A DNA stretch of 61,774 nt, the filler included, from Bdellovibrionota bacterium (GTDB lineage Bacteria; Bdellovibrionota; Bdellovibrionia; Bdellovibrionales; JAEYZS01), in the NCBI GenBank assembly GCA_963169515.1. It is 5 parts of 5 records of this genome, joined end to end, with 100 filler letters (N's around TTAATTAATTAA, not from the genome) between each part and the next. Parts side by side here need not be neighbours in the genome. Positions count along the whole stretch, not along the records: positions 1 to 5,101 come from CAUJEF010000134.1; positions 5,202 to 16,320 come from CAUJEF010000135.1; positions 16,421 to 27,400 come from CAUJEF010000136.1; positions 27,501 to 53,971 come from CAUJEF010000137.1; 1 more part is not named here. One strand, written 5' to 3'. Each line of letters begins with the position of its first letter. Positions within the stretch are counted from its first letter, which is position 1. The position numbers and the translations under genes are program-made. The notes under the pieces are model-generated. The model had not been told where the DNA came from. It saw nothing but the letters and a program-made list of their open reading frames with translations, and ran no database searches. Shown here in pieces: positions 559 to 31,798 of the stretch.

Positions 559-707
559 TCCAAACAACGGCCAAAAGAAACTGACTTTGTAACGCACCCC
601 CTCGTCTCCGGAGAAGTCTTGAATGTGGACTCCATTCCTACGCCCGCAGTCCAGACTTCACATTGAACTGACTGGCGATGAGTTTGAGCTGTACGTAGGA
701 ACGGATA

Positions 708-720
708 AAAACTGGCCCAC
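708..720 (+). repeat. Dispersed motif AAAACTGGCCCAC, copy 1
   Basis: Identical 13-mer at 11122(+), 12211-12223(-) and 31248-31260(-). Confidence 0.8.
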
Positions 721-822
721 TTGAAGAATAATAAATTAATGAGTCCCATTTTTGAAAAAAATTCGCTTCCAAGGGTGAGAATCAAATTTCCCCTGAAAGC
801 GAATTCGCAGATCCATAGTTAA

Positions 823-852
823 AAAATTGATCCGCTTAAGCGGATCAATTTT
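823..852. terminator. Bidirectional intrinsic terminator (perfect 30-bp palindrome) at the lexA 3' end
   Basis: AAAATTGATCCGCTTAAGCGGATCAATTTT with A/T tracts on both sides. Confidence 0.8.
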
Positions 853-1447
853 ATTTTCGAGCCTCAGCGCGGAAACGGCGAATGAGGCCAACAACAACGC
901 CCTCTATCTTAAAAGAATTTGAAGCGACAATAATAGGCTTAAAATCAGGATTAGCCGGACGTAACTCAACATATTCCCGGTGCTTGTAGAATCGTTTAAT
1001 AGTGGCCTCGTTATCGACGAGTGCCACAACAGTCTGCCCATTTTGAGCTGAGGATTGTTTTTTAATAATGACATAGTCTCCATCGTACACCCCATCGTCT
1101 TTCATGGATTGACCTGTGACTTCTAAAACAAAACAGTCCCCATGGGGGCGCAAGTATGATGGAATTTCGACGAGCTCAGGGGTTTCGATGGCTTCGATGG
1201 GTAGACCGGCAGCCACCTTGCCCAATAAGGGAAGCATCTTGGTTGAGGGTATGGGTTTGAGGGTCCGCTTCCCATTCCAGTCGCTTTTGACCAGTCCCTG
1301 GTCTTTCAAGCGGACTAAATAGTTTTGGACAGTTCCTAAAGAGTTGAAACCAAAATGTTCGGCAATTTCCCTTAGCGTGGGTGAAACCCCTTTCCGCTCT
1401 AATTGTTCATTTATAAAGTCTAATACTTTTTTCTGTTTCGGAGTCAT
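851..1447 (-). CDS. lexA: LexA SOS repressor
   Basis: N-terminal wHTH (PTLREIAEHFG), VAAG cleavage site, GQSM catalytic Ser and TIKR catalytic Lys; start MTPKQ at 1447. Confidence 0.95.
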   Translation of the reverse strand: MTPKQKKVLDFINEQLERKGVSPTLREIAEHFGFNSLGTVQNYLVRLKDQGLVKSDWNGKRTLKPIPSTKMLPLLGKVAAGLPIEAIETPELVEIPSYLRPHGDCFVLEVTGQSMKDDGVYDGDYVIIKKQSSAQNGQTVVALVDNEATIKRFYKHREYVELRPANPDFKPIIVASNSFKIEGVVVGLIRRFRAEARK

Positions 1448-1453
1448 ACAATC

Positions 1454-1482
1454 ACAATATGCGTAAGTTCTGCGTAAGTCAA
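1454..1482 (-). promoter_or_regulatory. Sigma70-type lexA promoter with direct-repeat operator candidate
   Basis: Minus strand TTGACT-N17-TATTGT-N6-ATG; ACTTACGCA repeated twice at 11-bp period across the -35 and spacer. Confidence 0.65.
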
Positions 1483-1619
1483 TACACAAATAAAATTGAC
1501 CGCACCTGACCTGCGATCAGCGCACGGAGTCTTGGGGTTAAGTTCTTGAATTCAGACAAATTCTTCATTGAGTCCAGAATACTGTGCAATAGGCTTTGCC
1601 GTCGTCATTGGAGGTTTTT

Positions 1620-1871
1620 ATGGATAGTGAAAATATGAATATGAATAATATTGAACGTGCAGTTCGATTCATTTTCGGATTTGCGATTTTTTTTGTGGGA
1701 CTTGTTATCGATTCTGTCTGGGGGTTTGCAGGATTCTTGTTAGTTTTCTCGGGTCTTTTTGGTTACGACCCAATCTATGCAATACTAAAAATTGATACGC
1801 GAAAAACGCGCGCAAAGATACGTCGACAAGCGGGGCGACCTAAAACGCCGGTCACATCCGCCGGTACTTAG
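1620..1871 (+). CDS. DUF2892 (YgaP-like) small membrane protein
   Basis: NMNNIERAVR..two TM helices..GYDPIYAILKIDT; GGAGG RBS. Confidence 0.8.
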   Translation: MDSENMNMNNIERAVRFIFGFAIFFVGLVIDSVWGFAGFLLVFSGLFGYDPIYAILKIDTRKTRAKIRRQAGRPKTPVTSAGT

Positions 1872-3513
1872 GGCCACTGCCACCTTCTCGAGGGGTCCAA
1901 CGCGGTCCCAATATGTCGGTTGCTTTGCAATCCACACAATTGGGCGCATTTATGACCAATTTGTCGCCTTGAACTTCGTAGACTCCAGCCGGACACATGT
2001 GCTGATACATTTCGGCGACCTCTTTTGAAACGTCTTTGCCAACCGTCAGGTGGCTTGGAATGTCGTCACGAGTTTTGTTTCCAGATAAATAAACGGCGTC
2101 AACTTTGCTTACGCCCTTGTGTGGATACGATAGCTTTTTATTAACGTCTTTTTTGTCAGCCGCGTCTTCTTCAGAGTGGGTGTATCCACCAAATAATGTT
2201 CCACCAGAAATTTGCATTAAGCTGGCTTTAATGCCTGCGGAGTAAAATCCTTTTTTGAAAGCCAAGCGCATATTTCGCGTGTATTTCAGATCGTCATAAA
2301 TATAACTTGATTTTACTTTGTCATCGTAAGCGGAAATTTTTGACAAATCGTTGGCTTTGATTGCATCAAAAATAGAACGTGCGGCTAAGATTCCTGCCTT
2401 CATAGCATAGTGAATTCCTTTAAGTGCGGGAACATTCACCATTCCGACACAATCGCCAGCAAATAAAATTCCATTTCCGTGAAGTTTTTCTGGCAATGCA
2501 TACAACCCGCCCTCGGGAATTGTTTTTGCCCCCCATTCAACTAATTCACCACCCTCAAGATATTTTTTAAACAATGGATGTTGCTTCATCTGTTGAAGCA
2601 ACTGATGGACATCTAGATTTGCCTCTTTATAGTCCAATCCCACAACCAACCCAAGTGCGACTAAATTATCCGCCATTGGGTACATAAAACTTCCGCCAAA
2701 GGCAGTTGTTGGCAGCGGCCAGCCCAGAGTATGAATAACATTTTTGGGAGCTTCCTTTGTCTCCCAAATTTCTTTCACGCCCAAGGCATAAATTTGTGGA
2801 TTTTGAGACTTCACATTTTGCCACTGCAAATAGCTTTGTGTGAGGTTTCCGCGAGTGCCTTCGGTTAATACGGTGACTTTTGCAGAGATATCAGTTGGGG
2901 GCATAAATTGCGGTCCCGGGCTGCCGTCGCGGTTTAGGCCTGTAGCGGTTGTGCGGACGCCCAAGATTTGATTGCCATCAACCAAAAGCGACTGAGCGGG
3001 GAATCCTGTAATGATATTAACCCCCAATTCGGTTGCTTTATCGCCCATCCAGCGAACGACTTCACAGATGGACCCAACATAATTGCCATGGTTATGCATT
3101 GTTGGTGGAGTCGGTAACCGAAGCGCCCCTGTTTGGGACATATAATAAACGGCATCACCTTGAACCGCCTTTCGAAGTGGGAACTGTGATGCATCCATTT
3201 CGGGAAATAACTCTTTCAGTGCAATAGGATTTATTACGGCACCAGACAAACAGTGTTCGCCTACATTTTGAGCTTTTTCTAAAACGCCAATTTCAAGTTG
3301 TATGTTTTCTTTTTTACAGAGTTTGACGAGTTCGATAGCACCGGCTAGTCCGGCGGGGCCTGCGCCAACAAAAACAACGTCGAGAGGGACGCTATCGGAA
3401 GATGGTTTTTCATTTATGATATGAACTTTTGTATCCAGCGGCGGTTGAAATTTTATAGGGAGAATTTCGGTAGAATTGTTTGGCGTTACGTTTATATTTG
3501 ACGGTGTTTGCAT
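1852..3513 (-). CDS. Electron transfer flavoprotein-ubiquinone oxidoreductase
   Basis: GAGPAG FAD motif, HCLSGAV, GVKEIW, C-terminal CPAGVYE/NCVDCKA..WTPREGGSGPKY Fe-S region. Confidence 0.92.
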   Translation of the reverse strand: MQTPSNINVTPNNSTEILPIKFQPPLDTKVHIINEKPSSDSVPLDVVFVGAGPAGLAGAIELVKLCKKENIQLEIGVLEKAQNVGEHCLSGAVINPIALKELFPEMDASQFPLRKAVQGDAVYYMSQTGALRLPTPPTMHNHGNYVGSICEVVRWMGDKATELGVNIITGFPAQSLLVDGNQILGVRTTATGLNRDGSPGPQFMPPTDISAKVTVLTEGTRGNLTQSYLQWQNVKSQNPQIYALGVKEIWETKEAPKNVIHTLGWPLPTTAFGGSFMYPMADNLVALGLVVGLDYKEANLDVHQLLQQMKQHPLFKKYLEGGELVEWGAKTIPEGGLYALPEKLHGNGILFAGDCVGMVNVPALKGIHYAMKAGILAARSIFDAIKANDLSKISAYDDKVKSSYIYDDLKYTRNMRLAFKKGFYSAGIKASLMQISGGTLFGGYTHSEEDAADKKDVNKKLSYPHKGVSKVDAVYLSGNKTRDDIPSHLTVGKDVSKEVAEMYQHMCPAGVYEVQGDKLVINAPNCVDCKATDILGPRWTPREGGSGPKYRRM

Positions 3514-3710
3514 AGCTTGAAAATATTCCAATTCCCAATGCGAATCAAAGACAACTTGATGGAGAAATGAGAACCTTTTTTGTCTGCACCGTTTAGGTCT
3601 TTGACAACCCAGTGGACATTATAATAGGTGCGGGGAGTGTGGTTGATAACTTAACCCAGAATGGCTTTGAAATATAAGTAAATACAGCTGGTTACGCCAC
3701 ATAGCTCAAC

Positions 3711-3726
3711 TGGCGTTTTAATTGCA
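3711..3726 (+). promoter_or_regulatory. Sigma54 (-24/-12) promoter candidate for the PLD gene
   Basis: TGGCGTTTTAATTGCA = GG-N10-GC, 60 bp upstream of the ATG. Confidence 0.55.
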
Positions 3727-3785
3727 CCCTATGGCGCTTGTAAAAGTTTAATTTTTTTAACCCTTTGCTCCTTCAGGAGAGATCC

Positions 3786-5101
3786 ATGAAAAAGTTTTTT
3801 AAAACCACTATTCTTGTGGCCCTGTTTGCAACTACTACGGTTGCGGGTATTAAAAAAGATGCCCCAATCGACATCAACGCTTCACTCAACAAGTATGCTT
3901 CAGCAAATCTAACGGGTGCGTATTCAAATGCCCGCATCGTTATCGATAACGATGAATCGTTTCGACAAAAAATCGAAATGATCCGTAAGGCAACAAAATC
4001 AATCGATATGATGTACTATATCTACGCGACGGACCAGAGTGCCTCTCTATTCACCAAAGAAATTGTAGCGGCTGCAAAGCGTGGTGTTCGCGTCAATCTA
4101 CTTTTAGATTATTTCATGAACTATAAAAATTTAGATCTATTTAATTGGATGAGGGCCCAATCGCCATTGATTGACATTCGTCTGTATGGCCGTCCGACAG
4201 AGGCAATTATCAAAGATGCTATTTATATGACCACGCCGTGCCCAAAAGCTATGGCTGAAAATAAATGCGCTGAACCAACAGGAATAGAAAATGCTTACGC
4301 AGTGATGACCCCGCAAGAGCGTGCACAAATATTAGACCAACGCCACTGCGCTAAGGATTTTGACGTGGCTTGTACAAACGAAAAGCTTGCGACAGTAGAT
4401 GCAATCATTAAAAAGGCAAAAGCGAATCATGAAACGATGTTGTCGTTTGCACCAACACAAATGATCCCGACAAAAGATCCTAAGATACAATTTCCAATTA
4501 GCGCGGGTTTATTGCTTTCGGGTATGTATGCGAAGAATCCTAAATTTATGGGCGCGGTGATGGCCTTAACACAGGCAATTGACAAAGAAGCTCAAATTGA
4601 TTGGGCGCAGGGGTTCAGTGCGGATGACAGAGCGAAGCTTAAAAAGTTTTTTAAACTCTATTGGGGTTACAAAACTGGCGATAACATGGGGATTAAACTT
4701 TATTTCGAAGCAAAAAATGACGTGGACGTGATTGAACCTGTGTTTACCCGCTTGGACCGTTACGTTCCAACCCAAAACGCGGGTCCGCTTCCGGAAGATA
4801 AGGTACGCCGCAACCAGGACTGGGATTACATTACAGATTATCTTCACCACAAAATCATCTTAGTTGACGGCAAGGCTGCAATGGTTGGTGGCCGTAACAT
4901 TGAAAACTCTTACAACATGACCGTTAATGATGCGAAATATGTTTTCATGGATACAGAATTAGCTCTAGATACTAAAGGCTCTGGTATGAAGGACGCGTAT
5001 ACCAAGATGTTCGATTTCTATCCTCTTGTCGCGCGACTTGATGAGGTGAACAAATTAATGCCGATTGACGGTCTTGTGAATTTTTATGCTGGTGCAAAAT
5101 C
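3786..5101 (+). CDS. Secreted phospholipase D / cardiolipin synthase-like protein (3' truncated by gap)
   Basis: Signal peptide, AAKRGVRVNLLLD, HKD motif HHKIILVD followed by GGRN. Confidence 0.85.
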
Positions 5102-5201
5102 NNNNNNNNNNNNNNNNNNNNNNNNNNNNNNNNNNNNNNNNNNNNTTAATTAATTAANNNNNNNNNNNNNNNNNNNNNNNNNNNNNNNNNNNNNNNNNNN
5201 N
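5102..5201. other. Artificial contig-joining spacer
   Basis: N run, TTAATTAATTAA (stops in six frames), N run. Confidence 0.98.
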
Positions 5202-5584
5202 TCAATTTGTGCCCATGCTTTTAACTTTGAATAAGGAGCTAAAATCCATTGAATAGGTTGTCTAAATGTAAACTCTGCAACAGGCTCTAAGCATGCAATA
5301 AAAATAGTTCCCTCATTTTCCAGAATGGGGATCGTATATTTGGGAAAATCATTTCGGTATCGGTTAATAAATTCTAAGTTTGGAGGCTGGCTGAAAAAGG
5401 TCGCTTTGAGCGTGGGAAGTTTATAATGATTTTTTGCCCAGGTAATGTATAAATCTTCATTTATCAATCCAGCTTCAATGCACGCATGCAAAAAGGAGGC
5501 CCCTGCAGGCAAAGCAGCGCGAACGGATTCGAGCTTATCTGGTTGGATTTTGAAGTGAATTGCCCATGGAAGATTAGTATTCAT
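5202..5584 (-). CDS. GspE/PilB N-terminal (T2SSE_N)-like domain protein, truncated
   Basis: GLINEDLYITWAKNHYKLP..IPILENEGTIFIACLEP resembles the N1 domain; runs into the gap. Confidence 0.5.
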
Positions 5585-5592
5585 CAGTTAAT

Positions 5593-5620
5593 TTTTCGGC
5601 ACATTAACAAAATGTTTTGA
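5593..5620 (-). promoter_or_regulatory. Possible sigma28 (FliA)-type promoter
   Basis: Minus strand (T)CAAA-N15-GCCGAAAA just upstream of the ATG at 5584. Confidence 0.35.
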
Positions 5621-5771
5621 GCATTATTGCTGTTATAAAAAAAATTAATTCCCATCCAAAGATCTAGCCTGGGGCTAGAGTGACACCAAAGTTGGAAAAA
5701 GATACCGATAATTTTAAGCCTGGACCATTGTTTTGTACGCGAGCGAGTAAGAGCTCTATTTTAACGGCATC

Positions 5772-6713
5772 TTGCGTGTTCTCAACAGTTGGCTCGGAAA
5801 TTGTAATACTAAAGTTGGGGAGGGGAAGGCTATGGGACAAGGGGAATCCCGCTGTCAGATAGAGAGAATAAATGCTGATAAATTGTATCTATTGATTTCA
5901 CTCTTTATATTTTTATGTCTCATGTTGATGGAGCCAGCTAGGGCCCAACAAGTAAGTTCGACCTCTGCGGCAGAATTTCCGATAAAAGATGAATTTAAAA
6001 TATTAAAAATAAAATTGATCGGTTTCTTATCTACAAATTTGTACGATGACACGAGCTCACTTAAAGCATCTTCAATGGATCTTTGGATTTTACCAGAAGT
6101 CAATTTTAGAAACGGATCAAATATTTCTCTTACCGCGATTTTGAGCCGGGACATTTCAGAAGAGCATAGGACAAAATTTTCTACTACTCGCGTAGAATAT
6201 ACTTTGAACACATTTGAAAACAAATGGCTCAAGGCAAGCCTGGTCCCAGCGCTTATATTGCCGACAGACTATGTTTTGTATGAAACGGATTCTTTACGTG
6301 GGGGCATCGGCATGACAGTGCCAATAACATTTAAGCTTCCAATGAAGAATTTAGTATTTTCATATAAACCGCGGTTTACAAAAAATATACACGAATTCAA
6401 TGTGAACGCGAATTTTAATTCAAATATCGAGTACTCGATTCGGCATCAAGTTCAAATTGCTTATAATTTGACAGAAAGAATTGAACTGGGTTTCGTGAAT
6501 AACTTTGTCCAGGGCTGGACCTATCGGGGAACAGCAAAACAGAGTTTTACATTTGAGCAGTCAATTTCCTATGCAGCCAGTAAGAATTTATCATTGGAGT
6601 TAGACCACTCAAATGAAGGGCCTGCAAAAAAACAAGGTGGGGCAGGGTCGAATGTTGAAGTTTTTAATGAGCATACATCACAAATTTCTTTTGGTGTTGG
6701 GTACGCGTTCTAG
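5772..6713 (+). CDS. Outer-membrane beta-barrel protein (true start probably near 5883)
   Basis: Signal-like hydrophobic stretch, amphipathic beta strands, C-terminal ISFGVGYAF beta-signal. Confidence 0.65.
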   Translation: MRVLNSWLGNCNTKVGEGKAMGQGESRCQIERINADKLYLLISLFIFLCLMLMEPARAQQVSSTSAAEFPIKDEFKILKIKLIGFLSTNLYDDTSSLKASSMDLWILPEVNFRNGSNISLTAILSRDISEEHRTKFSTTRVEYTLNTFENKWLKASLVPALILPTDYVLYETDSLRGGIGMTVPITFKLPMKNLVFSYKPRFTKNIHEFNVNANFNSNIEYSIRHQVQIAYNLTERIELGFVNNFVQGWTYRGTAKQSFTFEQSISYAASKNLSLELDHSNEGPAKKQGGAGSNVEVFNEHTSQISFGVGYAF

Positions 6714-6734
6714 AAGACTATTAAGGGGGACGTT

Positions 6735-9700
6735 ATGAAGAAAATTATTTTTAAAATAGGACTGGCAACCATCGCACTTATGGCGACAGCGTGTACAAAG
6801 GATGCGCCTTTTAAAAGGCTTCCAAAAAGCCAGCAGTTGGTCGATTTGAATCAACTGGACGCACTTAAGGAAAGCGAATTCCAAAAATTATCACAAAAAT
6901 TAAATGCTGAAACCGTTGTGAAAGACGATTGGTTGGCAGTGACATCATACGGGAAAAGCTCTCGGTCGAGTAGCGAAGCTCGATCGTTTTGGATGGGTTC
7001 AGAAAACCTGGTTCGATTTGTTAAAACAAAGGACGCGCTTATTTTAACAACAATCGAGGAAGATACTCGCTTTCAAGGAAATCCGACGAACCATCGACCG
7101 ATCTTAAGCATTCCTGCACGATATGTTGAATACCGTTGCAGCGCAGATGCTTTTGGCGAATGTACGAATCAAGAAGAGGAAAATAATGATATCCCTTGGC
7201 AAGATCGTCACATGGCAGAACTTGACTTTGGAAAGGCTGAATTTTTATCCCAAGAGGTTTTGCCATTAGAAATAAAGAATCTATTTGATGGCTGCTTTTC
7301 AGAGATTCAATCGAATCTTACAGGTTTAACACTCGAAGCGGGTGCGCTGAATATACAGCTTGAAAAAACAATCAAAGTTTCGCGCATAAGCCCAGACTGC
7401 CTGGGGAAGGCACATGGAATTGGGATTGAAGATTTGTCATTTAGGGTTCAATACACCCATTCGATCGTAAAAATGGATAGGTTAATATCAAAAGACTTTG
7501 AGCGTGTTTTTTACCCAGCTGGCGACGAATACACGTTTGGTTTCTTCAACACAACTGTTAATAAGCTGGCGATTGATAATCGAGATGTTCAAAATGGGAC
7601 TGTTTCTTACTTGAATCGTTGGAATCCAGCAAGAAAACACATTGCTTACAATTTATCTGATGAGTTTTTCAAACCTGAAAACAAAAAGATTCTGGATGCA
7701 ACATACATGGCTATTAATCATATAAATACAGCATTAAACAAAGCGGGATCCAATCTGGGAATCGATTTATCAGGCGAGCAGGGAAAGAATCCGAATGATC
7801 TTCGCAATAACACGATAGTTATGGTTGAAGATCCAGCGAACAGCGGTGTGATTGGTTACGGTCCATCGGTTGCAAATCCGCGTACAGGGGAAATTGTTCA
7901 TGCTCGCACTGTGATGTATCTTGGTGTCATCAAGCAATTGGCGTATCGCGGTTACGAAGAAGTTCGCCGTCAAATTTTAGAGGAAAAGACCAACGGTTCT
8001 GAGCTTGGGGGTGATGTAGAGCCAGTCGAGGCTTCGAGCGGCAAGGCGCTTCGAAATAATGAACTTTCAAAGTCAAAAGTTCTTGATGGTTTTGAGAGCA
8101 TTGTAAGGAAGCACAAAAGCACGGAGAATCTTACATTTAATTTTGATAAATACATGAGCGAGCACCTAGAATTTGTTAAGTCACAAGAAAAGGTAGCTTT
8201 TGGTAATATTAAAAAAACCTCTGCGGTCAAAGATCTGGTGACCTATAAGACAGATGCAAAGCGGGCGCTTTCCTTGTCTGATAAACTTCGCTTGGGTTAT
8301 AAGACTAACATTCAAGATGATGAACAAAGTGCAGTGATCGAAGAACAATTAAAAAAGGATTGGTCCAAGGACTGTTTATATGATGGCACAATAGCCTCAT
8401 TGAGTATTATTCGTAAAATTCTAAAAGAACGGGAAGAAATTCCGCGTCCGTGGGCACAATTATCTGATGATGAAAAGCAAGAGATAATGGATATGGTTGT
8501 GCCAGAGATCTGGATTACTACGCTGGTTCATGAATTGGGCCACAACTTAGGGCTTCGTCATAATTTTGCAGGCTCTGAAGATAAAGATAACTTTTACTCG
8601 GTTGAAGAGCTTGCAAATTTGGGCATTACCGATGAGCAAATACCGTATTCGTCTATGATGGAATACACATACCGTACGGTTGGGGCATTGCCGACGCTGG
8701 GTAAGTACGATATTGCCGCACTTCAATTTGGATACGGTCGGAAAATTGACCTCGCAAATGGACAAACAGCAGAGTTTATAAAAATAAAAGACGGAAATGG
8801 AAGATTTGTTCCGGGCATTCGAATTGGCGATAGTGAAATTAAAGTTTCAAGTGAACGAGAGCAAACGGTTGCCTTTCTTGAGGCGAATAACATTGCATTG
8901 AAGCCGTTTAAATTTTGCACTGACGAAATGGTTGGTGCAAACCCAGGGTGCAAAGTGTTTGACGAAGGTTCGACATTTTCAGAAATTGCACTCCACTTGA
9001 TTAAAACATACGAGGATTTCTATCGCATCCGTTATCAACGTAATGATCGAAGAGAATATTCTTTAATTGATGAAAACTTGCGGGCCAGTCGTACTGCGGA
9101 TCTTATGATGGATATGAGGATGTTTTTTGAAACAGTTGAACGGATTGAAAATATGTTTGGTCTTGAGCTTGACAATACCCTTTGGACCTCAAATCCTTTT
9201 TTGGCGGATCTCAGGGTGGCGGCGGACATTGCGGGTCGATTCCTTGCTAAAGTTATGTTAACGCCGGATGTGCACTGTGCGATCAGTTTAAAATCAGATC
9301 CTAAGAAGGTTGTGGATGTATTCCAGCTTAAAGATGTGAATCCACAGTGGCTGTCATGCTTTGATCAAGAGGTGAAAGAGCTTGTTAAATCTGTTGGTGA
9401 GAATCAAGATGAACCAATCGATTTAATTGTTTCTGGACAAGGAGGAAAATCCTTCCAATCTATGCGTGATATAAACAATCCTGATTCGAGAATCGATCAA
9501 ATTGATACGCAAGGTATATGGGCCGACAAATTGATTGCACAAGAAATGCTACTGGGCCGTGAAATGGGATTACTAAATTCAGATAAATACCAAGGAAATT
9601 TTTTGAATCTGCCAGAGTTGCGCCGAGATATTATCGGTACACTGGCTGGAATTGTGAATGGCGAGGTTACGGTTCCGATTGACTTTAGAAACGAATGGGG

Positions 9701-10346: not shown

Positions 10347-10407
10347 ACTTGGATAATATCTGTGATCCTAGAATAAATAGGCAAGGGGTCTAGGGTCATA
10401 AGATGTT

Positions 10408-10448
10408 GGGGGGAGGCGAAAAGCGTGGCTTGCGCCCCCTTCTTTTTT
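10408..10448 (+). terminator. Probable intrinsic terminator
   Basis: GGGGG..GCG / CGCCCCC imperfect stem followed by a T tract. Confidence 0.55.
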
Positions 10449-10487
10449 ATTCTTGAGATTCACTATATTTAGAGTTCAAATAAAAAT

Positions 10488-11123
10488 ATGAAATGCCTCA
10501 TGTTTTTATTTCTGATTGCACCGCTGACAGTGCGGGCCGAACCTATACAGAAGATGCTGAGATCTATGAGCGCTGGATTTGAACTGGGTGGAAGCATAGA
10601 CTTTATGATTTCAGATCAAGAAACCCATGCAAATGGTATGGGGTTGGGCAGTCAGTGGGGAATCTTTGCTGTTACAAACCGAAAAGGTACGGATTGGAAC
10701 TTCAAGCTTCGTTTGGATAGCGTTGGACTTCATGAAGAAGCATGGTCAAATTCTGCAGTAAAAAGCTTAGAGCAAGACTGGTTGATGCTGGGATTCAATG
10801 TCGAAAATAGAACCGATAAAAAAAATTATTTATATTTCTGGGAGGCCGGTATCGGATATGGTATTGGCGGTTCCAGTGAGATCTTTATGTCTACAAGCAC
10901 GGTGGATGCGGCGGTTTCAAAACTAGAGACAGATACAGCATCAAATTTTTTCTTGTCGGGCGGAGTTGGATTCAAGAAAAAATATCAAAATCGCTTTTCT
11001 ATTTTTACCTCTATGAGAACATTCTTTATTTTTGGCAAGCCATATTCGGCAGTGCCGTTTCAAGGTACGTCATTGTATCCAATTCCATTTTTGTTTTCTT
11101 TGGGTGTGGAGTATCAGCTTTAA
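10488..11123 (+). CDS. Outer-membrane beta-barrel protein (OmpA/OmpW-sized)
   Basis: Signal peptide, about 8 beta strands, C-terminal LGVEYQL. Confidence 0.65.
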   Translation: MKCLMFLFLIAPLTVRAEPIQKMLRSMSAGFELGGSIDFMISDQETHANGMGLGSQWGIFAVTNRKGTDWNFKLRLDSVGLHEEAWSNSAVKSLEQDWLMLGFNVENRTDKKNYLYFWEAGIGYGIGGSSEIFMSTSTVDAAVSKLETDTASNFFLSGGVGFKKKYQNRFSIFTSMRTFFIFGKPYSAVPFQGTSLYPIPFLFSLGVEYQL

Positions 11124-12223
11124 AACTGGCCCACATGATTGTTGAAAAAAGGCCAGTTTGAACCAGAAGAACTAAGACATCCTGTCTTTAAACCCCGAAA
11201 ATTTGGCCATCCATGGCCAAACCTGTGGCGCTTGCCACAAATGGCAAGCGTTTTCGAGATTCCTAAGAACAGGGACCCTTTATGCTGTCTTTTCTAAAAG
11301 CACATGATTGTGATAATAAGCATAGAGCTCTATATGATCTTTTAAGCGTTCTATGTTTTTTGTAGTACACCAGGTTTTGCGAAATAACCGATTGATATTC
11401 GCCCGAAGCATTGCAAATGTGTGGTTAAGTGAAAATAACGGATCATAGCCTGCTTTCTTAAGCTCTCCCTGACCTGTAACACATCCTCTTGCCCCTTCGG
11501 TTGTAATATGGATTGCGCCAGAAAACCATTTTCTAATTGCTGGCGGATAGTGTGGGTTTTGATCAGACTCAATGATAGCTACTGGCGACACATACGGTGC
11601 TATTTTTTCAAACAACGCATTCCTTGCAATAGGCCGCTCGTCAGCTCTTGGGCCGTATTTCTTTAGTGCTTTCTTAACCAAAAGCCCCTTTGCAGGCATA
11701 CGGCTAACCTCAAAAGCTAGAATTTTTCTAACCCCTTTCTCTACAGCCATGGTGACAGAGACAGGCTTACACTTTGTATGTTCAATAGTTTCAAGGTCAT
11801 CAAACTGGAACTCGTGAATAGTTTGAGAGGATTTAAGACTCTCAAGGTTTTTCTTTCTAGCGATCTGGGCTAAAAAAATGAGCTTTCTACTGACCGTGGT
11901 TCGGCTGATGCCCAAGATGCGTGCAATACGACGTTGTGAGACTCCAGAGCAGAGCATTTCAAAGATTCTTGGGTTAAGACGTCGCTTTTTCTGACGATAG
12001 CAGCTGTGACTTGTAGCCTCAGAAAAGCTGATTTGGCAGCGGTTACACACAAAGCGTTGGAACCTTTTTTTGTCTGAGTTTCGGACAAAATATCCGGAAT
12101 ACGAACTATCACTGTGGGATCTGCATTGTGGACAATTACGGGTCATGACCCGTAGGAAAAAGCAAGACCTGAGCCATGACTGTTACTTGCTACATATTAA
12201 CAACAACTATGTGGGCCAGTTTT
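11122..12223 (-). mobile_element. IS-like element bounded by 23-bp imperfect inverted repeats
   Basis: AAAACTGGCCCACATGATTGTTG (11122-11144) vs reverse complement of 12201-12223 AAAACTGGCCCACATAGTTGTTG (21/23); encloses a transposase; sits between two convergent stop codons; no clear target-site duplication. Confidence 0.75.
11280..12146 (-). CDS. IS1/IS1595-like transposase (Zn ribbon + HTH + DDE-type domain)
   Basis: CPQC..CNRC, HTH SQRRIARILGISRTTV, QFDDLET, IESD, LNHTFAMLR. Confidence 0.8.
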   Translation of the reverse strand: MTRNCPQCRSHSDSSYSGYFVRNSDKKRFQRFVCNRCQISFSEATSHSCYRQKKRRLNPRIFEMLCSGVSQRRIARILGISRTTVSRKLIFLAQIARKKNLESLKSSQTIHEFQFDDLETIEHTKCKPVSVTMAVEKGVRKILAFEVSRMPAKGLLVKKALKKYGPRADERPIARNALFEKIAPYVSPVAIIESDQNPHYPPAIRKWFSGAIHITTEGARGCVTGQGELKKAGYDPLFSLNHTFAMLRANINRLFRKTWCTTKNIERLKDHIELYAYYHNHVLLEKTA

Positions 12224-12224
12224 C

Positions 12225-12854
12225 TTAGTTTTTCAACTTCTTTGCATTTTTAGCGTCGGCTTGAGCCTTTGAAGATAGCTTTTTCCACTTTTTCACTTCG
12301 TCTTGGTATGTTTTACGTTTATCAGTCCAACTCTTTTTCTCGTCATTTGCTTTTACTTGCTTTTGTTTGATCTCAGATTGGATTTGAGTCACGGAATCCT
12401 TTTGCTCATCCCACTTTTTCTTTTCGCCGTCAATTTCGACTTTTTTCTGATTGTAGGATGCTATATTTTGATTCCGTTTATCTATGTTTTTTTCTACGTC
12501 AGCAATTTTCTTTTTAAGCTCTTCGATCTGAGCCTGTTCTTTCGTGATTTTATCCTGTTCATTTTTAATCAAGCCATCCATACTTATACGTTGTTTTTCA
12601 AGCTTCTGAGAATTCGCTTGAGCATCTTTCACGGTTTGCTCGATAGACTTCTGTTTTTTTGCAAGGTCCACAAGCACGGCCTCAATTTCAGAAATATTAT
12701 TGTCCACAACTTTCAAGTTATCTTCATATTGATCTAAATTTTTCTTTGCATTTTCGGCGTTTTTCTCAAGCTCTTGTATTTGCCCCTCAACGTAGGTTGA
12801 TGCGACAGCGCCCATCCCAATGGTCAGTAATCCGATTATAATTAGCTTTTTCAT
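12225..12854 (-). CDS. Secreted long coiled-coil protein
   Basis: Signal peptide then a continuous K/E/Q-rich heptad pattern. Confidence 0.75.
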   Translation of the reverse strand: MKKLIIIGLLTIGMGAVASTYVEGQIQELEKNAENAKKNLDQYEDNLKVVDNNISEIEAVLVDLAKKQKSIEQTVKDAQANSQKLEKQRISMDGLIKNEQDKITKEQAQIEELKKKIADVEKNIDKRNQNIASYNQKKVEIDGEKKKWDEQKDSVTQIQSEIKQKQVKANDEKKSWTDKRKTYQDEVKKWKKLSSKAQADAKNAKKLKN

Positions 12855-12907
12855 AGTTTTATCCTCTTATAGTCAAAATTAAATCCGCCAAGAGATCTTG
12901 GCGTTCC

Positions 12908-21534: not shown

Positions 21535-21691
21535 TCATGATGAACCTACCCGAAGAGTCATCACGATTCTACACAATTTTCTGATTTGTTCTCGCCCATG
21601 GTCCAGATTCCACCGCCTTTTTATCTAGGCAAATGCCCACTTTGGCAAAGTCTGCAAAACTTTTTATGGATCACCACTTAAGGGGGGAGCT

Positions 21692-23487: not shown

Positions 23488-23505
23488 TCTGCTTTTGATT
23501 TTAAA

Positions 23506-26220: not shown

Positions 26221-26323
26221 GTGTTAAAGACTTTTCTCGTTAAAAACTGAATTTTATTCGAAAAGAGGCAAAATCCCTATATCAATCATAGGGTTTGAAG
26301 ATATCGTAAAGACACTTGGGACT

Positions 26324-27160
26324 CTAGCGCACCAGGCGGACTTGATTTTCAAAGATTTCCAATGCCTTACCACGATTCATGAGGGTTACTGATTCAATAT
26401 AAGGCCGATGTTCGGCGATTTTCTTTTGAACTGCCGCTATATCTTCACGATTGATTTCAGCAACGTCCACCTTGTAGACATGAACGACGACACGAGTCCT
26501 CCGGGGGCGGCACTGGTCACATTTCGAAGTTTTTACACCTAAAATACGTGTTAAATATACGATGCTTTTAAACGTGTGCTCATAATAATTAGGCCAGCGA
26601 TCGCGTTGAAAGCTAAAACTTCGATTCTCTGCAAACCTCTGCCCCGTTAGGCTATTGAACCATGGCCTCTCGCTCAAAGAATAATGATAGGCTTTTGAAA
26701 TTGCCAGATCTGTTGCCCCCCGCCAGTCGTAGTCCGTCCCCTTAAGAGAGTAATTCGCAATGGGTTCATTGTCTTGAGAATAAACAATGCCATCAAACCC
26801 AGGCACAAAAATTTGGTCATATTTAGAAAGAAAAAGAAGTTTTTCATTGCGTGGCAACAGTACAAGGCGTGCGTATTGGTCTGATTGTTTGAGCTCGCTT
26901 ACGATCTGCTCATCTTCAAGCTTAAATTCTTTGAGCGCAAAGAGCGGCGAACGATCCGACATTATCCGTACATCGCGGTCTGTGAGCCGAACATCTCGTG
27001 CCGTGACAGCGTCATACTCGTGAAAAAACATGGATGAAATATCTGCGCGCGAAAAAGAAATTTTAGGCTCGTAAGAAAAAAAGGCCTCACAAACATTATT
27101 AAGCGTTCGTGCCCCGCAGGTTGAACCTATGCAAACCCCTAAAACAGCCCCTAAAATCAT
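26324..27160 (-). CDS. Secreted hypothetical protein, possible nuclease-fold domain
   Basis: Signal-like N-terminus from ATG 27160; PGFDG..NYSLK motif. Confidence 0.55.
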   Translation of the reverse strand: MILGAVLGVCIGSTCGARTLNNVCEAFFSYEPKISFSRADISSMFFHEYDAVTARDVRLTDRDVRIMSDRSPLFALKEFKLEDEQIVSELKQSDQYARLVLLPRNEKLLFLSKYDQIFVPGFDGIVYSQDNEPIANYSLKGTDYDWRGATDLAISKAYHYSLSERPWFNSLTGQRFAENRSFSFQRDRWPNYYEHTFKSIVYLTRILGVKTSKCDQCRPRRTRVVVHVYKVDVAEINREDIAAVQKKIAEHRPYIESVTLMNRGKALEIFENQVRLVR

Positions 27161-27281
27161 TACCCTCAAATGTCCCGCCTCGCTAAAGAAAGTTATAGGG
27201 AGTGCCGTAGCGTATGGCAACGGCAGCACTGTGACTGTGAAACCTTTACTTTTATCCCAGACTTAGATTACTATCTTTTTT

Positions 27282-27400
27282 ATGACAATTCCTGAAATAC
27301 TAAGAACTTACAAAAAAATAGCTGTCATCGGGCTCAGCCCCGATGAAAGCCGACCCAGTAACGGTGTCACTCGATACATGATCGCTCATGGCTACGAAAT
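27282..27400 (+). CDS. CoA-binding protein (YccU-like), truncated
   Basis: Translated by hand: MTIPEILRTYKKIAVIGLSPDESRPSNGVTRYMIAHGYE. Confidence 0.8.
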
Positions 27401-27500
27401 NNNNNNNNNNNNNNNNNNNNNNNNNNNNNNNNNNNNNNNNNNNNTTAATTAATTAANNNNNNNNNNNNNNNNNNNNNNNNNNNNNNNNNNNNNNNNNNNN
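27401..27500. other. Artificial contig-joining spacer
   Basis: N run, TTAATTAATTAA, N run. Confidence 0.98.
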
Positions 27501-27870
27501 GCATATTTTCAACTTGAAATTTTAAACAATTCCACAGAGATCGAACATTCACATCCATCACATTGTCGAAATCCTCCAGTGAAAGTTTCGAAATCGCGCT
27601 CCATTTTCCCTCAGTCCCCGCGCTATTGACTGCAACATGAATGGGGCCCATTGTCTTAAAGCTTCTTTCAACGGCCTTTGTGTCGGTTACATCCAAAATC
27701 TCAAAGGTTACATTTTTCTGACAATCCTTTGCTGTTTTTTTTAAATCCTTTTCAGATCGGGCCACCAAATGGACCGATGCACCCAGCTCAGAAAATGCAA
27801 GCGCACAGGCGCGACCAATGCCACGGCTTGCCCCAGATATCCATATTTTTTTATTTTTAAATTCGTACAT
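27501..27870 (-). CDS. SDR family oxidoreductase, truncated
   Basis: SGASRGIG, VNSAG. Confidence 0.88.
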
Positions 27871-29539
27871 AGGGTGCCACATCCGGATATTTTTTTATTG
27901 TTTCTCGTACATTTGTACGAACGGATTCATACAGTGGGCCATTCCATTTTCTTTTGCTGGACAGCTGTAAAATTTCAAATCTCAAAAGCCATGCGTCTGG
28001 AAACTCTTCTGCCTTTTTAAGCAAATCCTTCAGTTGATTTTCAGTGTACTCTCCGCCACCGGCCCATTTATTCACTTGATCATACAATTTGAATAATTTG
28101 TTTTCGGCACTTGAGTATTTGGGAGCAGGCAATTTTTTGGCTACAAAATCATCGGCCTGTCCATAAGCTTTTCGATCCGCAGCGCCGCCAAATACAGAAG
28201 TGACCGACGTCCCTATTGCAAGATCATAGGTGCCCCATTCACGTAAAAATAATTTTTCATTGATCCACTGAACATTGCAATCTGTGAATGATAGCACAAG
28301 GATACGGCCACTACGTTTTGTGATTTTTTTTAGCTTGCCCTCAACAATAACGCCAGATTCATACATCAATCGCACAGGTTTACCAGCTACGATCCCCTTT
28401 TCTTTTAATGCTCGCGTCCCCAAGCGCGAAATATCTCCAATATTTTTTATCGGCCCAATCGCTGTTCCAAAGCCTTGTGGATGTTGTCTTTTTCCCTGCC
28501 CGACAATCTCTTTTCCAGAGTAGGCCAGCTGGCATGGCCCCGAGAGCTGAACATAAATCGGCTTGTTATCGAGTTCATAGAACTTGCTGAGAACACCTGA
28601 GATTTGAACCCCAGAAGACAATTCAATTGTATTTACGGTCTCTGCGTCTTTCATGCGTTTTAAGCCGCTTATACCACCTATTTTATAGGACAGCATGTTT
28701 TCTAAGTCTCGCAGTCCAGACTCTAATTCTTTAAAATTTTTTGTCACAAATAGTTGTGGTTGCGGGTCTGTAATGTCGTATGGAAAATTTGTGCAATCAA
28801 TTGAAAATGGAATTTTTCGAACGTGCGGCTTTAGGCAGTTTTGGCTTTCGCCCACTGATGACAACAGCCCTGCTCCAAATATTTTATTGTCACCCACAAG
28901 ACCATATTCTGTCGTCCACCATGCCATCCTAGATAGTAAAACAGCTTCGGTTGGTTCCGCAATGGCCTCATTTGCCGCTCTTAAGCGTTGATAGGCATTG
29001 TCTACGGAGTCTTTGGTTGCGCTTGGATTTTCTTTTAAATCTGAAAGCTCACGAACAGCCTCATACTGTTCTAAGTCCTTCTTTGTGATAATGGCCTTGC
29101 GGGCGACCTCAGCATAGCGACGTAGATAGCGCGAATACGTTTTATTTGAAAGCATCGGAGCGTGTCCCGCAGCCTCATGTACAATATCCGGAGCTGGAGT
29201 ATAATCCAAATTTTCTACCCGCCGCATTTCTGTCGCAATTGGAAGCACACCATGTGATTGCAATTCCATAAATGCTGCCGGGGGGATAAAACCACTTACA
29301 CATCCCGCGCGCCATCCAAACTTTTTCAAGCACCGGTCAATGTAGCCTATGCTCGGAATTTTATTAAGGGTAATCCCCGTTTTCTTTAAACCCCTTTTAT
29401 ACGCAGGATGGGCATTTTCATTCAAAAAACTTGTCAGTTCGCGCATGATAAATCGCCAAACCGCGTGGTCTTCTGGCGTGTAGCGCTTATAGTTCTGCTT
29501 TACCAGGTATCTTTTTAAATGATTCGGAAGTTTCCCCAT
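27857..29539 (-). CDS. phhA: Aromatic amino acid (phenylalanine 4-) hydroxylase, long form
   Basis: YTPAPDIVHEAAGHAP, WWTTEYG iron ligands, GAGLLSS. Confidence 0.88.
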   Translation of the reverse strand: MGKLPNHLKRYLVKQNYKRYTPEDHAVWRFIMRELTSFLNENAHPAYKRGLKKTGITLNKIPSIGYIDRCLKKFGWRAGCVSGFIPPAAFMELQSHGVLPIATEMRRVENLDYTPAPDIVHEAAGHAPMLSNKTYSRYLRRYAEVARKAIITKKDLEQYEAVRELSDLKENPSATKDSVDNAYQRLRAANEAIAEPTEAVLLSRMAWWTTEYGLVGDNKIFGAGLLSSVGESQNCLKPHVRKIPFSIDCTNFPYDITDPQPQLFVTKNFKELESGLRDLENMLSYKIGGISGLKRMKDAETVNTIELSSGVQISGVLSKFYELDNKPIYVQLSGPCQLAYSGKEIVGQGKRQHPQGFGTAIGPIKNIGDISRLGTRALKEKGIVAGKPVRLMYESGVIVEGKLKKITKRSGRILVLSFTDCNVQWINEKLFLREWGTYDLAIGTSVTSVFGGAADRKAYGQADDFVAKKLPAPKYSSAENKLFKLYDQVNKWAGGGEYTENQLKDLLKKAEEFPDAWLLRFEILQLSSKRKWNGPLYESVRTNVRETIKKYPDVAPYVRI

Positions 29540-29643
29540 AACAGAAGACTATTCAATATTACTGCTATTGTCTATGTACCATAACCGTGTTAAACCAATC
29601 GCGGGTCGTTGCAGCAACCTTTGGCTTGCAAAAAGGAGAAGGC

Positions 29644-31098
29644 ATGAAACACCTGATTATTTTCACATTTGGTTTGGCGATTACAGTTCCTGCAATTGCC
29701 CAAGAAATTACCTTTGATTTAATGCACACAAAACAAAACTGCCAGCACACGGGTTATCAGCCGACGTTCTGTGAAATGAACGCCGACATCGACGATGCAA
29801 CGAAGCTGTCTGACATGGTACCAAAAATCAATGCTCAAATTGACCGCGCAATCAATGCACCAGATCCTACTCTGGCACACATTTTTATCGCTTACTTAAG
29901 TTTTTCAAACAGATTGATTCATAGCAAACTCTGCGAAGCACTCCAAAAAGGTGTTCACATTCGTATTGTGCTAGATAGCGGCTCTGCCTCGAGTATTGAT
30001 TCAATGTTAAGCAATAACGCGTGCAAAGGGGTGACCAATTTGCCGCGTTTTTCACAATTGGGCGGCTTGACCAGCAGCCCTTGGCGTCTTCACCACAATA
30101 AATTTTTATACGTAGATCCAGGAACGGGAGAAGGCGTAAATATTAATGCTTCCTCTGGCAACTTGTCGGCATTTGGAACCAGCCTGCACGAGGACCATTG
30201 GATTATGATGACAGCGCCTAAACATTCTAATCTGATAAAAACACATCTGTGCGTTATGCAAGCCCTAGATGAGACAACAAACTACGCAGATTCAATTGGC
30301 GGACACGACGGAACAAATGACAAACGGGTCGCCAATAAATACATTGCCTCTCTTACAAAATGCTACGCTCAAAATAACGTGATCCCCATGGATCAACCTG
30401 AAATGGCCATTGCAAAAGAAAAGGTGGCCATGCTTTTTTCGCCAAACGCAAATGATGAAGTTTTCACCGTATTTAACAATGAAATCCGTACAGTCGAAAA
30501 AACCGGATCAAACGGATATATTTACATCGCAATTCAACATTTTCTGGACAACGGAATTGGAAATGCGCTTGCCCGAGCCTCAAACGCCGGCGTTGACGTT
30601 CGTATCATTATGGATGACGACGTCGTAACTAACAAAGGCGAGGTCCAAGGAGCCGAGAATTTTTTAAAAAGATTAAAACAACAAGCCCCAAGAATACAAA
30701 TTCGTTATATTGAAACAAATCGAAATGCAGGCGGCAACGGTCAGATGATGCACAATAAATTTGCCATCCTGAACGGCAAGCGCGTTTTTTCAGGCGCAGG
30801 TCAATACACAGGCGCTGCACTTCGTAAAAATTGGGAGAACTTTGTCTTAACCCAAGTCCCAACACTGACAAAAAAATATGGCGAGTATTTTAAGGAACTT
30901 TGGGATGAATCAGTCGACGAAGATTACGTCCGGAGACAACTGCAGTACAACGAAGACATCACAAATACGCACCAGCAACCACCGATCACATTCACCTCTG
31001 CAGAAAAAACTTATCACAAAAGATTTTTAGATTTGCTGGGTGGCGAAAACTCAGCCGTGCATGCTCGCCCCACTTGCGTGTTCCATCATACATCGTAA
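29644..31098 (+). CDS. Secreted phospholipase D-family (Nuc-like) protein with two HKD domains
   Basis: Signal peptide, HNKFLYVD and HNKFAILN motifs, NWEN. Confidence 0.82.
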   Translation: MKHLIIFTFGLAITVPAIAQEITFDLMHTKQNCQHTGYQPTFCEMNADIDDATKLSDMVPKINAQIDRAINAPDPTLAHIFIAYLSFSNRLIHSKLCEALQKGVHIRIVLDSGSASSIDSMLSNNACKGVTNLPRFSQLGGLTSSPWRLHHNKFLYVDPGTGEGVNINASSGNLSAFGTSLHEDHWIMMTAPKHSNLIKTHLCVMQALDETTNYADSIGGHDGTNDKRVANKYIASLTKCYAQNNVIPMDQPEMAIAKEKVAMLFSPNANDEVFTVFNNEIRTVEKTGSNGYIYIAIQHFLDNGIGNALARASNAGVDVRIIMDDDVVTNKGEVQGAENFLKRLKQQAPRIQIRYIETNRNAGGNGQMMHNKFAILNGKRVFSGAGQYTGAALRKNWENFVLTQVPTLTKKYGEYFKELWDESVDEDYVRRQLQYNEDITNTHQQPPITFTSAEKTYHKRFLDLLGGENSAVHARPTCVFHHTS

Positions 31099-31099
31099 T

Positions 31100-31220
31100 A
31101 CCCTCGGCTAATTATACTCCTTGAAAAAATCTCGGACAGTCCTCAGGCAGCGCCGCTCACTACCGTGAGCATCGCACCTTGCGGAACTCGTTTTTACAAG
31201 GAGAATAATAAGCCGAGGGT
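31100..31220. mobile_element. 121-bp MITE/REPIN-like non-autonomous element
   Basis: 30-bp terminal inverted repeats (27/30) with internal GCTCAC-tacc-GTGAGC hairpin. Confidence 0.65.
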
Positions 31221-31247
31221 TTCTAGTCTTTCGGCACCAACGTGCAA

Positions 31248-31260
31248 GTGGGCCAGTTTT
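31248..31260 (-). repeat. Dispersed motif AAAACTGGCCCAC, copy 4, overlapping the transposase stop codon
   Basis: GGATAAAACTGGCCCACTTG here vs GGATAAAAACTGGCCCACTTG at 703-723. Confidence 0.8.
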
Positions 31261-31798
31261 ATCCCGACTGCGATAGTTGACGTTGAATAAGAACTTTGGC
31301 AATATCACGTTTAAAACCTTGCCCCTCAAGGCGATTTATTTTTATGTAATCTTTTAATGACAATTGCGCCCTCCGGCCAACCACCACTCGGGTAAAAGGA
31401 CGCAAATCCCAGAACTTTGTTATACCAACTTGTGCTTTCGTTTTCCATCTACTGACGCCCGTTATTTTCATCGCAATGGCTGCCGTCACCGCACGAATAA
31501 ATGGCTTGTATGTATACCTATTGGTGAGTTGAATTTCCAAGTGAATATGATTGCCAACGTTTGCTCCATGAAGAAGTTTAACACCATATTTTGCAGCAAA
31601 TTTTTTTAATATCTCCCTGGTGATTACTTTGTTTTTGGGTTCTAAAAAAGACCATTTACCCTTTGCCCTAGATGATCTCAGGACCAAATGCATCGTATGC
31701 CTGGTTACAATAGGCCTTCCCGAGACACGCCCATTTCGCTTCTTAAGGAGTTCGCCACCGTAAGCAAGTTCTTGTTTTTTAAAAAACTCTTTCTGCAT
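31259..31798 (-). CDS. HUH Y1 tyrosine transposase (IS200-like / REP-associated RAYT-like)
   Basis: MHLVLRS, GNHIHL HUH motif, FWDLRPFTRVV, catalytic YIKIN. Confidence 0.8.
   Translation of the reverse strand: MQKEFFKKQELAYGGELLKKRNGRVSGRPIVTRHTMHLVLRSSRAKGKWSFLEPKNKVITREILKKFAAKYGVKLLHGANVGNHIHLEIQLTNRYTYKPFIRAVTAAIAMKITGVSRWKTKAQVGITKFWDLRPFTRVVVGRRAQLSLKDYIKINRLEGQGFKRDIAKVLIQRQLSQSG

Follow-up and report, generated by a model that had tools for sequence, protein, structure and literature searches.

Insertion sequences (ISs) of the IS1 family, which include IS1 of Escherichia coli and the ISMhu11 group with its single open reading frame (ORF), are about 1 kb long, are bounded by terminal inverted repeats (TIRs) of about 23 bp starting with GG, duplicate 8-9 bp of target and encode a D-D-E transposase. 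[quoted passage not shown] Here we describe elements that resemble both, which we followed from a 13-bp motif, AAAACTGGCCCAC, found four times in a 61,774-nucleotide stretch of the genome of a Bdellovibrionota bacterium (hereafter, the window). In our assessment the motif is very probably the TIR end of an IS1-like family with a 9-bp target duplication, and the same transposase likely moves, in trans, a hairpin MITE that ends in the fourth copy as well as larger cargo units.

Other described systems come close in part. According to PMC3184786 and PMC10969869, Chunjie, a MITE found in Geobacter uraniireducens, is 178-235 bp long, with a 21-bp TIR, 9-bp direct repeats and a very stable hairpin, and many of its partial copies lack the TIR or the repeats. 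The consulted text of PMC3184786 also describes integron mobilization units (IMUs), in which two MITE-like ends surround passenger genes and a transposase would act in trans, and bcr1 of the Bacillus cereus group, a transcribed element with 5-bp repeats, a cruciform-like fold and compensatory changes. The class of transposases linked to repetitive extragenic palindromic (REP) sequences, RAYT or TnpA-REP, is characterised in PMC6006769 by a Y-x3-NP signature. For Bdellovibrio, an IS2-like element is the only one mentioned in the consulted text of PMC3539863. IS ends, hairpin MITEs and MITE-bounded cargo are therefore already known kinds of object. Our literature search found nothing on this particular IS/MITE family or its link to stop codons; ISfinder, most subscription papers and supplements (e.g. 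of PMC11602168) were outside its scope.

The window joins five contigs of a 2.38-Mb assembly. Exact copies of AAAACTGGCCCAC lie at 708-720(+), 11122-11134(+), 12211-12223(-) and 31248-31260(-), hereafter copies 1 to 4, on contigs C134, C135 (two copies) and C137. This is above chance: allowing up to 2 mismatches there are 7 matches in the window against 1.66 expected, a number reached by 0 of 100 shuffles. Copies 2 and 3 extend to a 23-bp pair identical at 21/23 positions, while copies 1 and 4 are both preceded by GGAT and followed by TTG. A TAA is overlapped by copies 2 and 4, and copy 3 lies 1 bp from one. The whole genome has 9 exact copies, a number that rises to 28 when one mismatch is allowed, and a 23-bp weight matrix gave 32 matches, compared to 4 in the reversed genome. 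The initial annotation of this DNA, which had reported the four copies, their extensions and the three that adjoin a TAA, and had supposed that the motif occurs genome-wide, was correct in all these respects.

We found that copies 2 and 3 are the two ends of a 1102-bp IS holding a 288-aa ORF. Its parts are:

11121 to 11123, plus strand: TAA stop of the ORF at 10488-11123, made of one flanking T and the first two bases of the TIR (sequence)
11122 to 11144, plus strand: copy 2, downstream 23-bp TIR of the IS1-like element (sequence, relatives' ends, duplication register)
11190 to 11275, no strand assigned: two-hairpin structured segment within the IS, downstream of the transposase and unrelated to the MITE core described below (folding, core-model search)
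11280 to 12146, minus strand: IS1-like transposase, 288 aa, with zinc ribbon, helix-turn-helix (HTH), RNase H-like fold and invariant D116, D195, N241 and K263 (profiles, alignment, model)
12201 to 12223, minus strand: copy 3, upstream 23-bp TIR of the 1102-bp IS (sequence, relatives' ends, duplication register)
12224 to 12232, plus strand: 9-bp flank identical to the other-side flank of an IS end on contig C17, likely the true target duplication (sequence identity)

The encoded protein is a putative transposase. Its zinc-ribbon residues C5, C8, C34 and C37 are conserved, the HTH is matched in Pfam, and D116, D195, N241 and K263 are invariant in 30/30 aligned members, the alignment taking in 30 of 52 full-length proteins. 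N241 is presumably the third catalytic position, as placed by the IS1 motif. A structural model (mean predicted local distance difference test, pLDDT, 87.7) retrieved integrases and transposases, the best at E 7.6e-5 with low TM-scores of 0.3-0.4, consistent with a fold of the RNase H-like integrase/transposase type. The NCBIfam model of IS1, NF033558, was matched by 30/30 aligned members, the window's own protein scoring 54.8 bits, which is under the curated cut-off of 100. No IS1595-type DDE profile in Pfam or NCBIfam was matched, and NF050000 was matched by 7/30. The family is present in 58 of 150 genomes of the order (the same 150 genomes underlie all order-wide counts of IS, HUH enzyme and core given here), numbers 4995 clusters in the protein collection at E <= 1e-10, and includes a relative of 62% identity that carries the source label "IS1 family transposase". 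In the assembly there are at least 6 downstream and at least 2 upstream IS ends. Read depth over the IS in four public runs is roughly 3-5x that of the adjoining sequence; several alternative flanks were seen, and no contig runs across the IS.

The 13-bp motif is the outer (5') end of the 23-bp TIR of this IS1-like DD(N) transposase family. In IS copies of relatives from many families, the 5' end of the TIR reads NAAACTG(G/A/C)CC, with TAAAC, TGAAC, CTAAC, (T)AAAAC and (T)AGAAC among the observed starts. A 9-bp duplication with at most one mismatch, counted from the first base of the motif, flanks 13 of the 48 scored IS copies in relatives (3 loci of this set had no detectable TIR and 6 lay at contig edges); 8-bp or 10-bp windows in the same register gave no matching. 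In an independent set of 29 loci, from which 11 further loci had been excluded as apparent duplicates of counted ones, the 9-bp duplication was present in 5 of 23 TIR-paired IS copies. Because the duplication fixes this register, NAAACTG can be taken as the true IS end.

Copy 4 belongs to a different kind of element, which abuts a gene for an HUH enzyme:

31063 to 31260, no strand assigned: 198-bp hairpin MITE, ordered TIR-bulge-arm-core-arm-bulge-TIR, with a decayed left TIR (genome copies, folding)
31100 to 31130, plus strand: left inner arm of the MITE, which pairs with 31191-31220 (folding)
31131 to 31190, plus strand: 60-nt asymmetric stem-loop core, present in 27/150 genomes of the order (model search, alignment, folding)
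31191 to 31220, plus strand: right inner arm of the MITE (folding)
31238 to 31260, minus strand: copy 4, intact MITE TIR whose first two bases finish the TAA stop of the HUH gene (sequence, paralogue comparison)
31259 to 31798, minus strand: Y1 HUH transposase-like gene, 179 aa, with H84-x-H86, Y151 and N155, one of 8 paralogues in the genome (profiles, alignment, model)

The segment 31063-31260 folds into a single long hairpin in which a 23-bp TIR, an unpaired bulge and a 30-bp arm lead to the 60-nt core and are then mirrored. About 13 full or partial copies, 8 of them with an intact core, are dispersed in the window's genome; they are short and non-coding, and identity between copies is 85% in the core, 78% in the inner arm, 79% in the TIR and 46% in the bulge. 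A structured segment had been claimed beside each motif locus. These segments are real (z = -8.2 for 31063-31260 as DNA, and -3.8/-3.3 for 625-710 and -4.8/-3.3 for 11185-11280 as RNA), and are three mutually unrelated structures: a model of the core run over the window matched 31123-31200 only.

The outer 23 bp of the MITE match the TIR of the IS in the same genome, and likewise in G013. There, TIR-arm-core-arm-TIR elements of 202-205 bp carry a 9-bp duplication in 5 of 7 TIR-paired copies; of another 10 core loci there, 7 lack the TIR pair. The IS itself contains the core hairpin in G089 and G148, placed between the transposase stop and the TIR together with a decayed internal mirror of the TIR, and other IS lineages have unrelated cores at the same position. 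The MITE would have originated from the downstream end of an IS, which has a structured core about 70 bp inside the TIR and a mirrored arm. Given the shared ends, the IS1-like transposase likely mobilises this MITE of about 200 bp in trans, and would likewise move larger cargo units with the same ends.

Two further observations concern these hairpins. At L024, L029 and L031 a hairpin of about 200 bp, on the downstream side of the transposase, forms the IS end; it runs up to the TIR and has a different core, which holds a stretch that we take to be like the E. coli REP consensus. In G013, L104 and L145 differ in that the core and inner arms are flipped relative to the outer bulges, which suggests an inversion between the arms.

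Larger units were found in G273. Its 81 cores mostly form inverted pairs 385-1800 bp apart, in which two IS downstream-end modules surround transposase fragments (22 matches) or genes; the cargo includes a HipA-type pair (L278), a PadR gene and unannotated ORFs. One unit (L277), 1958 bp long, has a perfect 9-bp duplication. Another (L218) has an 8-bp duplication with a mismatch, and a comparison of filled with empty sites in relatives, which the initial annotation had foreseen, showed its site to be empty in G089. The cargo of L210 was looked for in G089 and was not found there. Inside L204, L218, L221 and L224 of G273, transposase fragments of 20-60 bp are assembled into mosaics of changing order, presumably akin to fragment capture by Pack-MULEs. 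Three contigs of the window's genome, C8, C23 and C79, have toxin-antitoxin pairs that come after a TIR remnant, and on two of these (C8 and C23) a closing TIR remnant of 10 bp faces back toward the pair; none of the three has duplication support as a unit. These data support the view that paired ends delimit non-autonomous units with swappable cargo, toxin-antitoxin genes included. To that extent the earlier idea that the motif delimits cargo holds. It does not hold for the gene pair of the window itself, from which copy 1 points away and which it does not bracket:

87 to 558, plus strand: DUF4160/DUF2442 gene pair, a putative toxin-antitoxin system, a neighbour whose status as cargo is not established (Pfam PF13711, PF10387)
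708 to 723, plus strand: copy 1, a 16-bp TIR remnant without a partner end, oriented away from the toxin-antitoxin pair (genome and matrix comparison)

Altogether, direct support comes from the TIR that these elements share, from 9-bp duplications on the IS, the MITE and one 2-kb cargo unit, and from an enrichment at stop codons that is taken up below. Several observations weigh against a single IS1-like family as the source of all of this. The duplication is missing in 35/48 and 18/23 IS copies of the two sets, 9 of the 13 duplications in the first set come from two similar assemblies, none was seen by eye at the six two-armed MITEs of the window's genome, and 14 of 16 paired elements in G273 lack one. 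The window's own IS copy has no target duplication either. Its right flank in the window is identical to the one on the left of the C17 IS end, so that C135 is probably a collapsed join, the left flank of which belongs to another IS copy; the pairing of C17 with C135 flanks across contigs is inferred, and the rescue of this duplication depends on it. The third catalytic residue is N instead of E, which departs from the D-D-E triad of IS1. The core is not enriched with the IS (8/27 core genomes against 50/123 others), and of the 14 genomes with at least 6 cores, 5 have the IS, 5 the HUH enzyme and 6 neither at strict thresholds, one of these six having other Y1 genes. Finally, an HUH gene is found no further than 400 bp from 5 of the 8 cores of the window's genome (P about 3e-7), and each of the seven close HUH paralogues has a TIR or MITE within about 300 bp, an adjacency that our explanation does not by itself predict.

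Absent duplications are usually explained by decay, by recombination between copies or by adjacent deletion (PMC11708052). In most copies here they would have been lost through adjacent deletion, recombination between copies or collapsed assembly, and remnants such as copy 1 may be products of such loss of a duplication or an end. At about 7322-7352 of C8 in G000, two TIR heads are fused directly, without any interior, and form a perfect palindrome at a distance of 1 bp from a stop codon; this is a collapsed element.

The elements occupy host stop codons well above chance, and the link to gene 3' ends that had been suspected from the window is a strong one. At 10 of the 30 TIR sites in the window's genome, a gene that reads into the site has its stop no more than 8 bp away, compared to a background of 2.65%. 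In relatives 51/82 ends are at stop codons, which is partly an effect of the TIR supplying a TAA, TAG or TGA. We therefore rebuilt the empty sites from insertions with intact duplications, which removes stops supplied by the TIR. A native host stop was present at -3 to +12 of the target start in 16 of 21 rebuilt empty sites (13/16 and 3/5), spread across 9 of 11 assemblies; this interval was picked after the count of 51/82 in relatives. The corresponding backgrounds are 6.7% and 6.9% among positions that are non-coding or belong to the last 30 bp, 8.5% once promoter zones are removed and 11.3% among AT-rich sites that contain a triplet resembling a stop, all drawn from the window's genome and the fetched loci rather than from each host. 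Adjacent deletion as the sole cause of the abutment is ruled out, as copies with intact duplications abut stops equally (13/22 against 38/60 ends).

An insertion on a stop codon would leave the host protein intact, because the start of the TIR (in each of the forms listed above) rebuilds the stop. Copy 4 fits this pattern: the stop codon of paralogous HUH genes at this position is TAG or TAA, and in this gene the TAA is finished by the TIR. There is about an even chance that the link to stops is nothing more than a survival filter, by which insertion takes place anywhere in AT-rich DNA and only copies on or just after stops are tolerated in compact genomes. A TIR that brings its own stop makes 3'-terminal insertions harmless, 5 of the 21 duplicated sites are away from stops, and all of the sites are fixed insertions in natural genomes. 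Against a filter alone stand the backgrounds of only 8.5% and 11.3% just given, the clustering of native stops within about 15 bp rather than over all tolerated 3' ends, and an unrelated repeat of the same genome, a weak control, for which 3 of 18 roughly placed ends fall within 8 bp of a stop. We place selection combined with a preference for AT slightly ahead of active stop seeking. A more ambitious proposal, which we regard as improbable though worth stating, is that a large unnamed IS1/IS1595-like D-D-N family actively targets stops through a cue from translation termination or the coding-to-noncoding transition and not through sequence, that its TIR evolved to rebuild the stop, that its downstream end docks interchangeable cores, one of them independent, and that paired ends capture toxin-antitoxin and HUH cargo.

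The conserved core could have a history of its own. It might be an independent structured unit, either a mobile hairpin with an enzyme yet to be identified or an RNA or DNA selected by the host, that has repeatedly colonised IS ends, the MITE then being a hybrid; we hold this to be possible and rather unlikely. The core is conserved across families while its arms, though self-complementary, are specific to a lineage or copy. Nearly always it sits in the loop of a near-perfect inverted repeat of 20-80 bp (77 copies), and in lineages without the TIR the arm consists of a fixed frame and a variable, self-complementary middle. Over 19 aligned copies 89% of cells in the stem pair and 6 of 15 pairs show two-sided changes; a slid control gives a similar covariation score, which leaves the covariation support for the stem moderate. 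An independent unit would also fit with the multicopy cores without a TIR in G009, G121, G175, G065 and G085, with the unrelated cores at the same position in other IS lineages, and with the gene contexts, which are convergent in 33, tandem in 32 and divergent in 3 of 68 cases, the neighbours being ordinary genes. G009 is a single-contig genome in which searches for the IS and for Y1 genes gave no match; its loci L107, L181 and L173 contain tandem arrays of core units, with periods of 169 and 187 bp, and then short tandem repeats.

Other results speak for an old and decaying IS-end module instead. In each of five lineages (G000, G013, G089/G273, G148 and G267) a TIR and the core lie 70-80 bp apart. 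At a site in G121, relatives that lack the insert lack the arms too, which indicates that the arms arrived with the insert and, at this one informative site, rules out arms made as inverted copies of target DNA upon insertion; a G142 site was excluded from this test as too diverged. No transposase or mobility gene recurs beside TIR-less cores in the 62 of 104 neighbouring ORFs that were scanned. An Rfam search over the core matched no family, giving only sub-threshold microRNA-like matches and an unrelated 6S RNA, and two core patterns had 0 matches in viral contigs. By eye the core had seemed to prefer one strand with respect to the upstream gene, a bias that was gone on counting (17 against 15 in tandem contexts). 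At L106 150-317 in G267 there is a 6S RNA gene, close to a core copy.

We next consider the HUH enzyme, which the initial annotation had made the agent that spreads or uses the motif. Its predicted structure has the Y1 HUH fold, with a best TM-score of 0.58 to the REP-associated enzyme 4ER8, and Y151-x3-N155 is conserved without the following proline of the Y-x3-NP signature. The family occurs in 66/150 genomes. The paralogues are intact, with more synonymous than replacement changes, which indicates purifying selection. Besides the seven close paralogues, a divergent eighth has a decayed TIR or MITE nearby, and upstream of a second HUH subfamily, 37% identical, there is also a decayed MITE. 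The HUH gene of this lineage would, at about even odds, once have been bracketed by two MITEs and have spread as a passenger; the case for such an ancestral MITE-HUH-MITE unit is that distal TIRs lie at similar positions beside the paralogues on C7, C69 and C145 (-292, -253 and -230). Conversely, the HUH element might insert beside MITE hairpins or use them as its own ends, a doubtful alternative in our judgement. It would account for MITE positions that differ among paralogues (62, 89 and 214 bp upstream; 0, 20 and 94 bp downstream), for the decayed MITE of the second subfamily and for an HUH family that is multicopy elsewhere without MITEs. The similar distal TIRs are expected instead of one bracketed ancestor, copy 4 sits on the HUH stop codon as other insertions of the TIR family sit on theirs, and the adjacency was not seen in other genomes. 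HUH family matches number 12-40 per genome in G011, G022, G035, G040 and G179, and a few copies (L071, L077, L080, L088 and L097) are near AT-rich or GC-rich hairpins of their own; the family may be self-mobile with lineage-specific ends.

That a RAYT-like HUH enzyme spreads and cuts the motif as a REP-like site, the IS merely lying between such sites, is highly improbable: the adjacency of cores, TIRs and MITEs to all eight paralogues in this genome, their intact state and the similarity to 4ER8 favour it, yet the 9-bp duplication at the first base of the motif is a DDE signature, motif, arm or MITE core was found at 0/44 related HUH loci, no listed core is within 400 bp of an HUH gene in four other genomes that have both (G016 0/7, G085 0/7, G179 0/8 and G011 0/3, coordinates by eye), and on the reverse strand CCAGTTTT and flank come after the GTGG, with no REP palindrome or hairpin. 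Genomes with the core are not enriched in the HUH family (10/27 against 56/123 others), and five core-rich genomes gave no match to the HUH profile in a search without a positive control, the same profile having matched 66/150 genomes. With 0/44 related loci, no co-occurrence and a silent profile in core-rich genomes, the HUH enzyme is rejected as the mobiliser; the neighbouring enzyme is probably not what spreads the motif, and the HUH-driven cargo-site system as first proposed does not stand. The motif's sites are largely ends of IS1-like elements and their scars, an outcome that the initial annotation had itself named as speaking against its proposal.

Near copy 1 the window holds sequences of other origin. 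Positions 550-626, directly after the DUF2442 stop, are the first ~75 bp only of a second, unrelated repeat family of about 415 bp, with at least 5 near-full copies of 87-91% identity (G000 C30, C31, C58, C65 and C166) and further partial copies elsewhere; no partner enzyme was identified for it. As the end of this separate repeat, 550-626 is ruled out as an attC site or a member of the motif system. Positions 629-705, which separate the repeat remnant from copy 1, form a 77-nt hairpin of z about -3.5 that has no second copy in the genome and belongs to neither repeat family; as a distant core it was rejected, the core model giving no match even with filters off. At 823-852, the 3' end of lexA, a perfect inverted repeat flanked by A/T runs is probably a bidirectional terminator.

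If stop seeking were true, a protein-only DDE-type transposase that lands on the stops of unrelated genes would represent a new way of choosing harmless sites, and would be a useful tool for insertion at gene 3' ends. The core in genomes without the TIR is a defined object for asking why MITE interiors retain a fold.

Compared to the systems introduced at the outset, the family is like IS1 in its N-terminal zinc ribbon and HTH, RNase H-like core, ~23-bp TIR, 9-bp duplication and length of ~1 kb. It differs from IS1 in its score of 54.8 against a cut-off of 100, an invariant N as third residue and a TIR that begins NAAACTG and not GG, and also in a downstream end that is often a long hairpin and in its strong link to stop codons. 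With IS1595 it shares the zinc ribbon-HTH architecture (NF050000 in 7/30) and the non-autonomous and cargo derivatives, and its D-D-N-K residues may correspond to those of the DDNK groups; it differs in matching no IS1595 DDE profile and in its duplication, which is 9 bp here.

The Chunjie MITE, compared by its description, is similar in size, TIR, 9-bp repeats, stable hairpin and partial copies, and differs in that the core here could be followed into the end of an autonomous IS and into lineages without the TIR. IMUs and mobile insertion cassettes such as MIC231 (cited in PMC2266710) have in common with the units described here the two MITE-like ends that flank passenger genes; here the ends derive from the downstream hairpin module of an IS, and the cargo includes toxin-antitoxin genes and scrambled transposase fragments. 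The dispersed bcr1 repeat, as described in PMC3184786, likewise keeps its fold through compensatory changes, while the 5-bp repeats, cruciform-like fold and known transcription belong to bcr1. Finally, this genome resembles RAYT/REP systems (PMC6006769 and PMC3116915) in having an HUH protein with Y1 fold, HxH and Y-x3-N and adjoining hairpins. It differs in that there is no GT(A/G)G-footed palindrome here, in that a conserved centre with variable arms is the reverse of a REPIN, and in that the enzyme has Y-x3-N without the P and 8 copies, with relatives in which no hairpin links it to the motif or the core.

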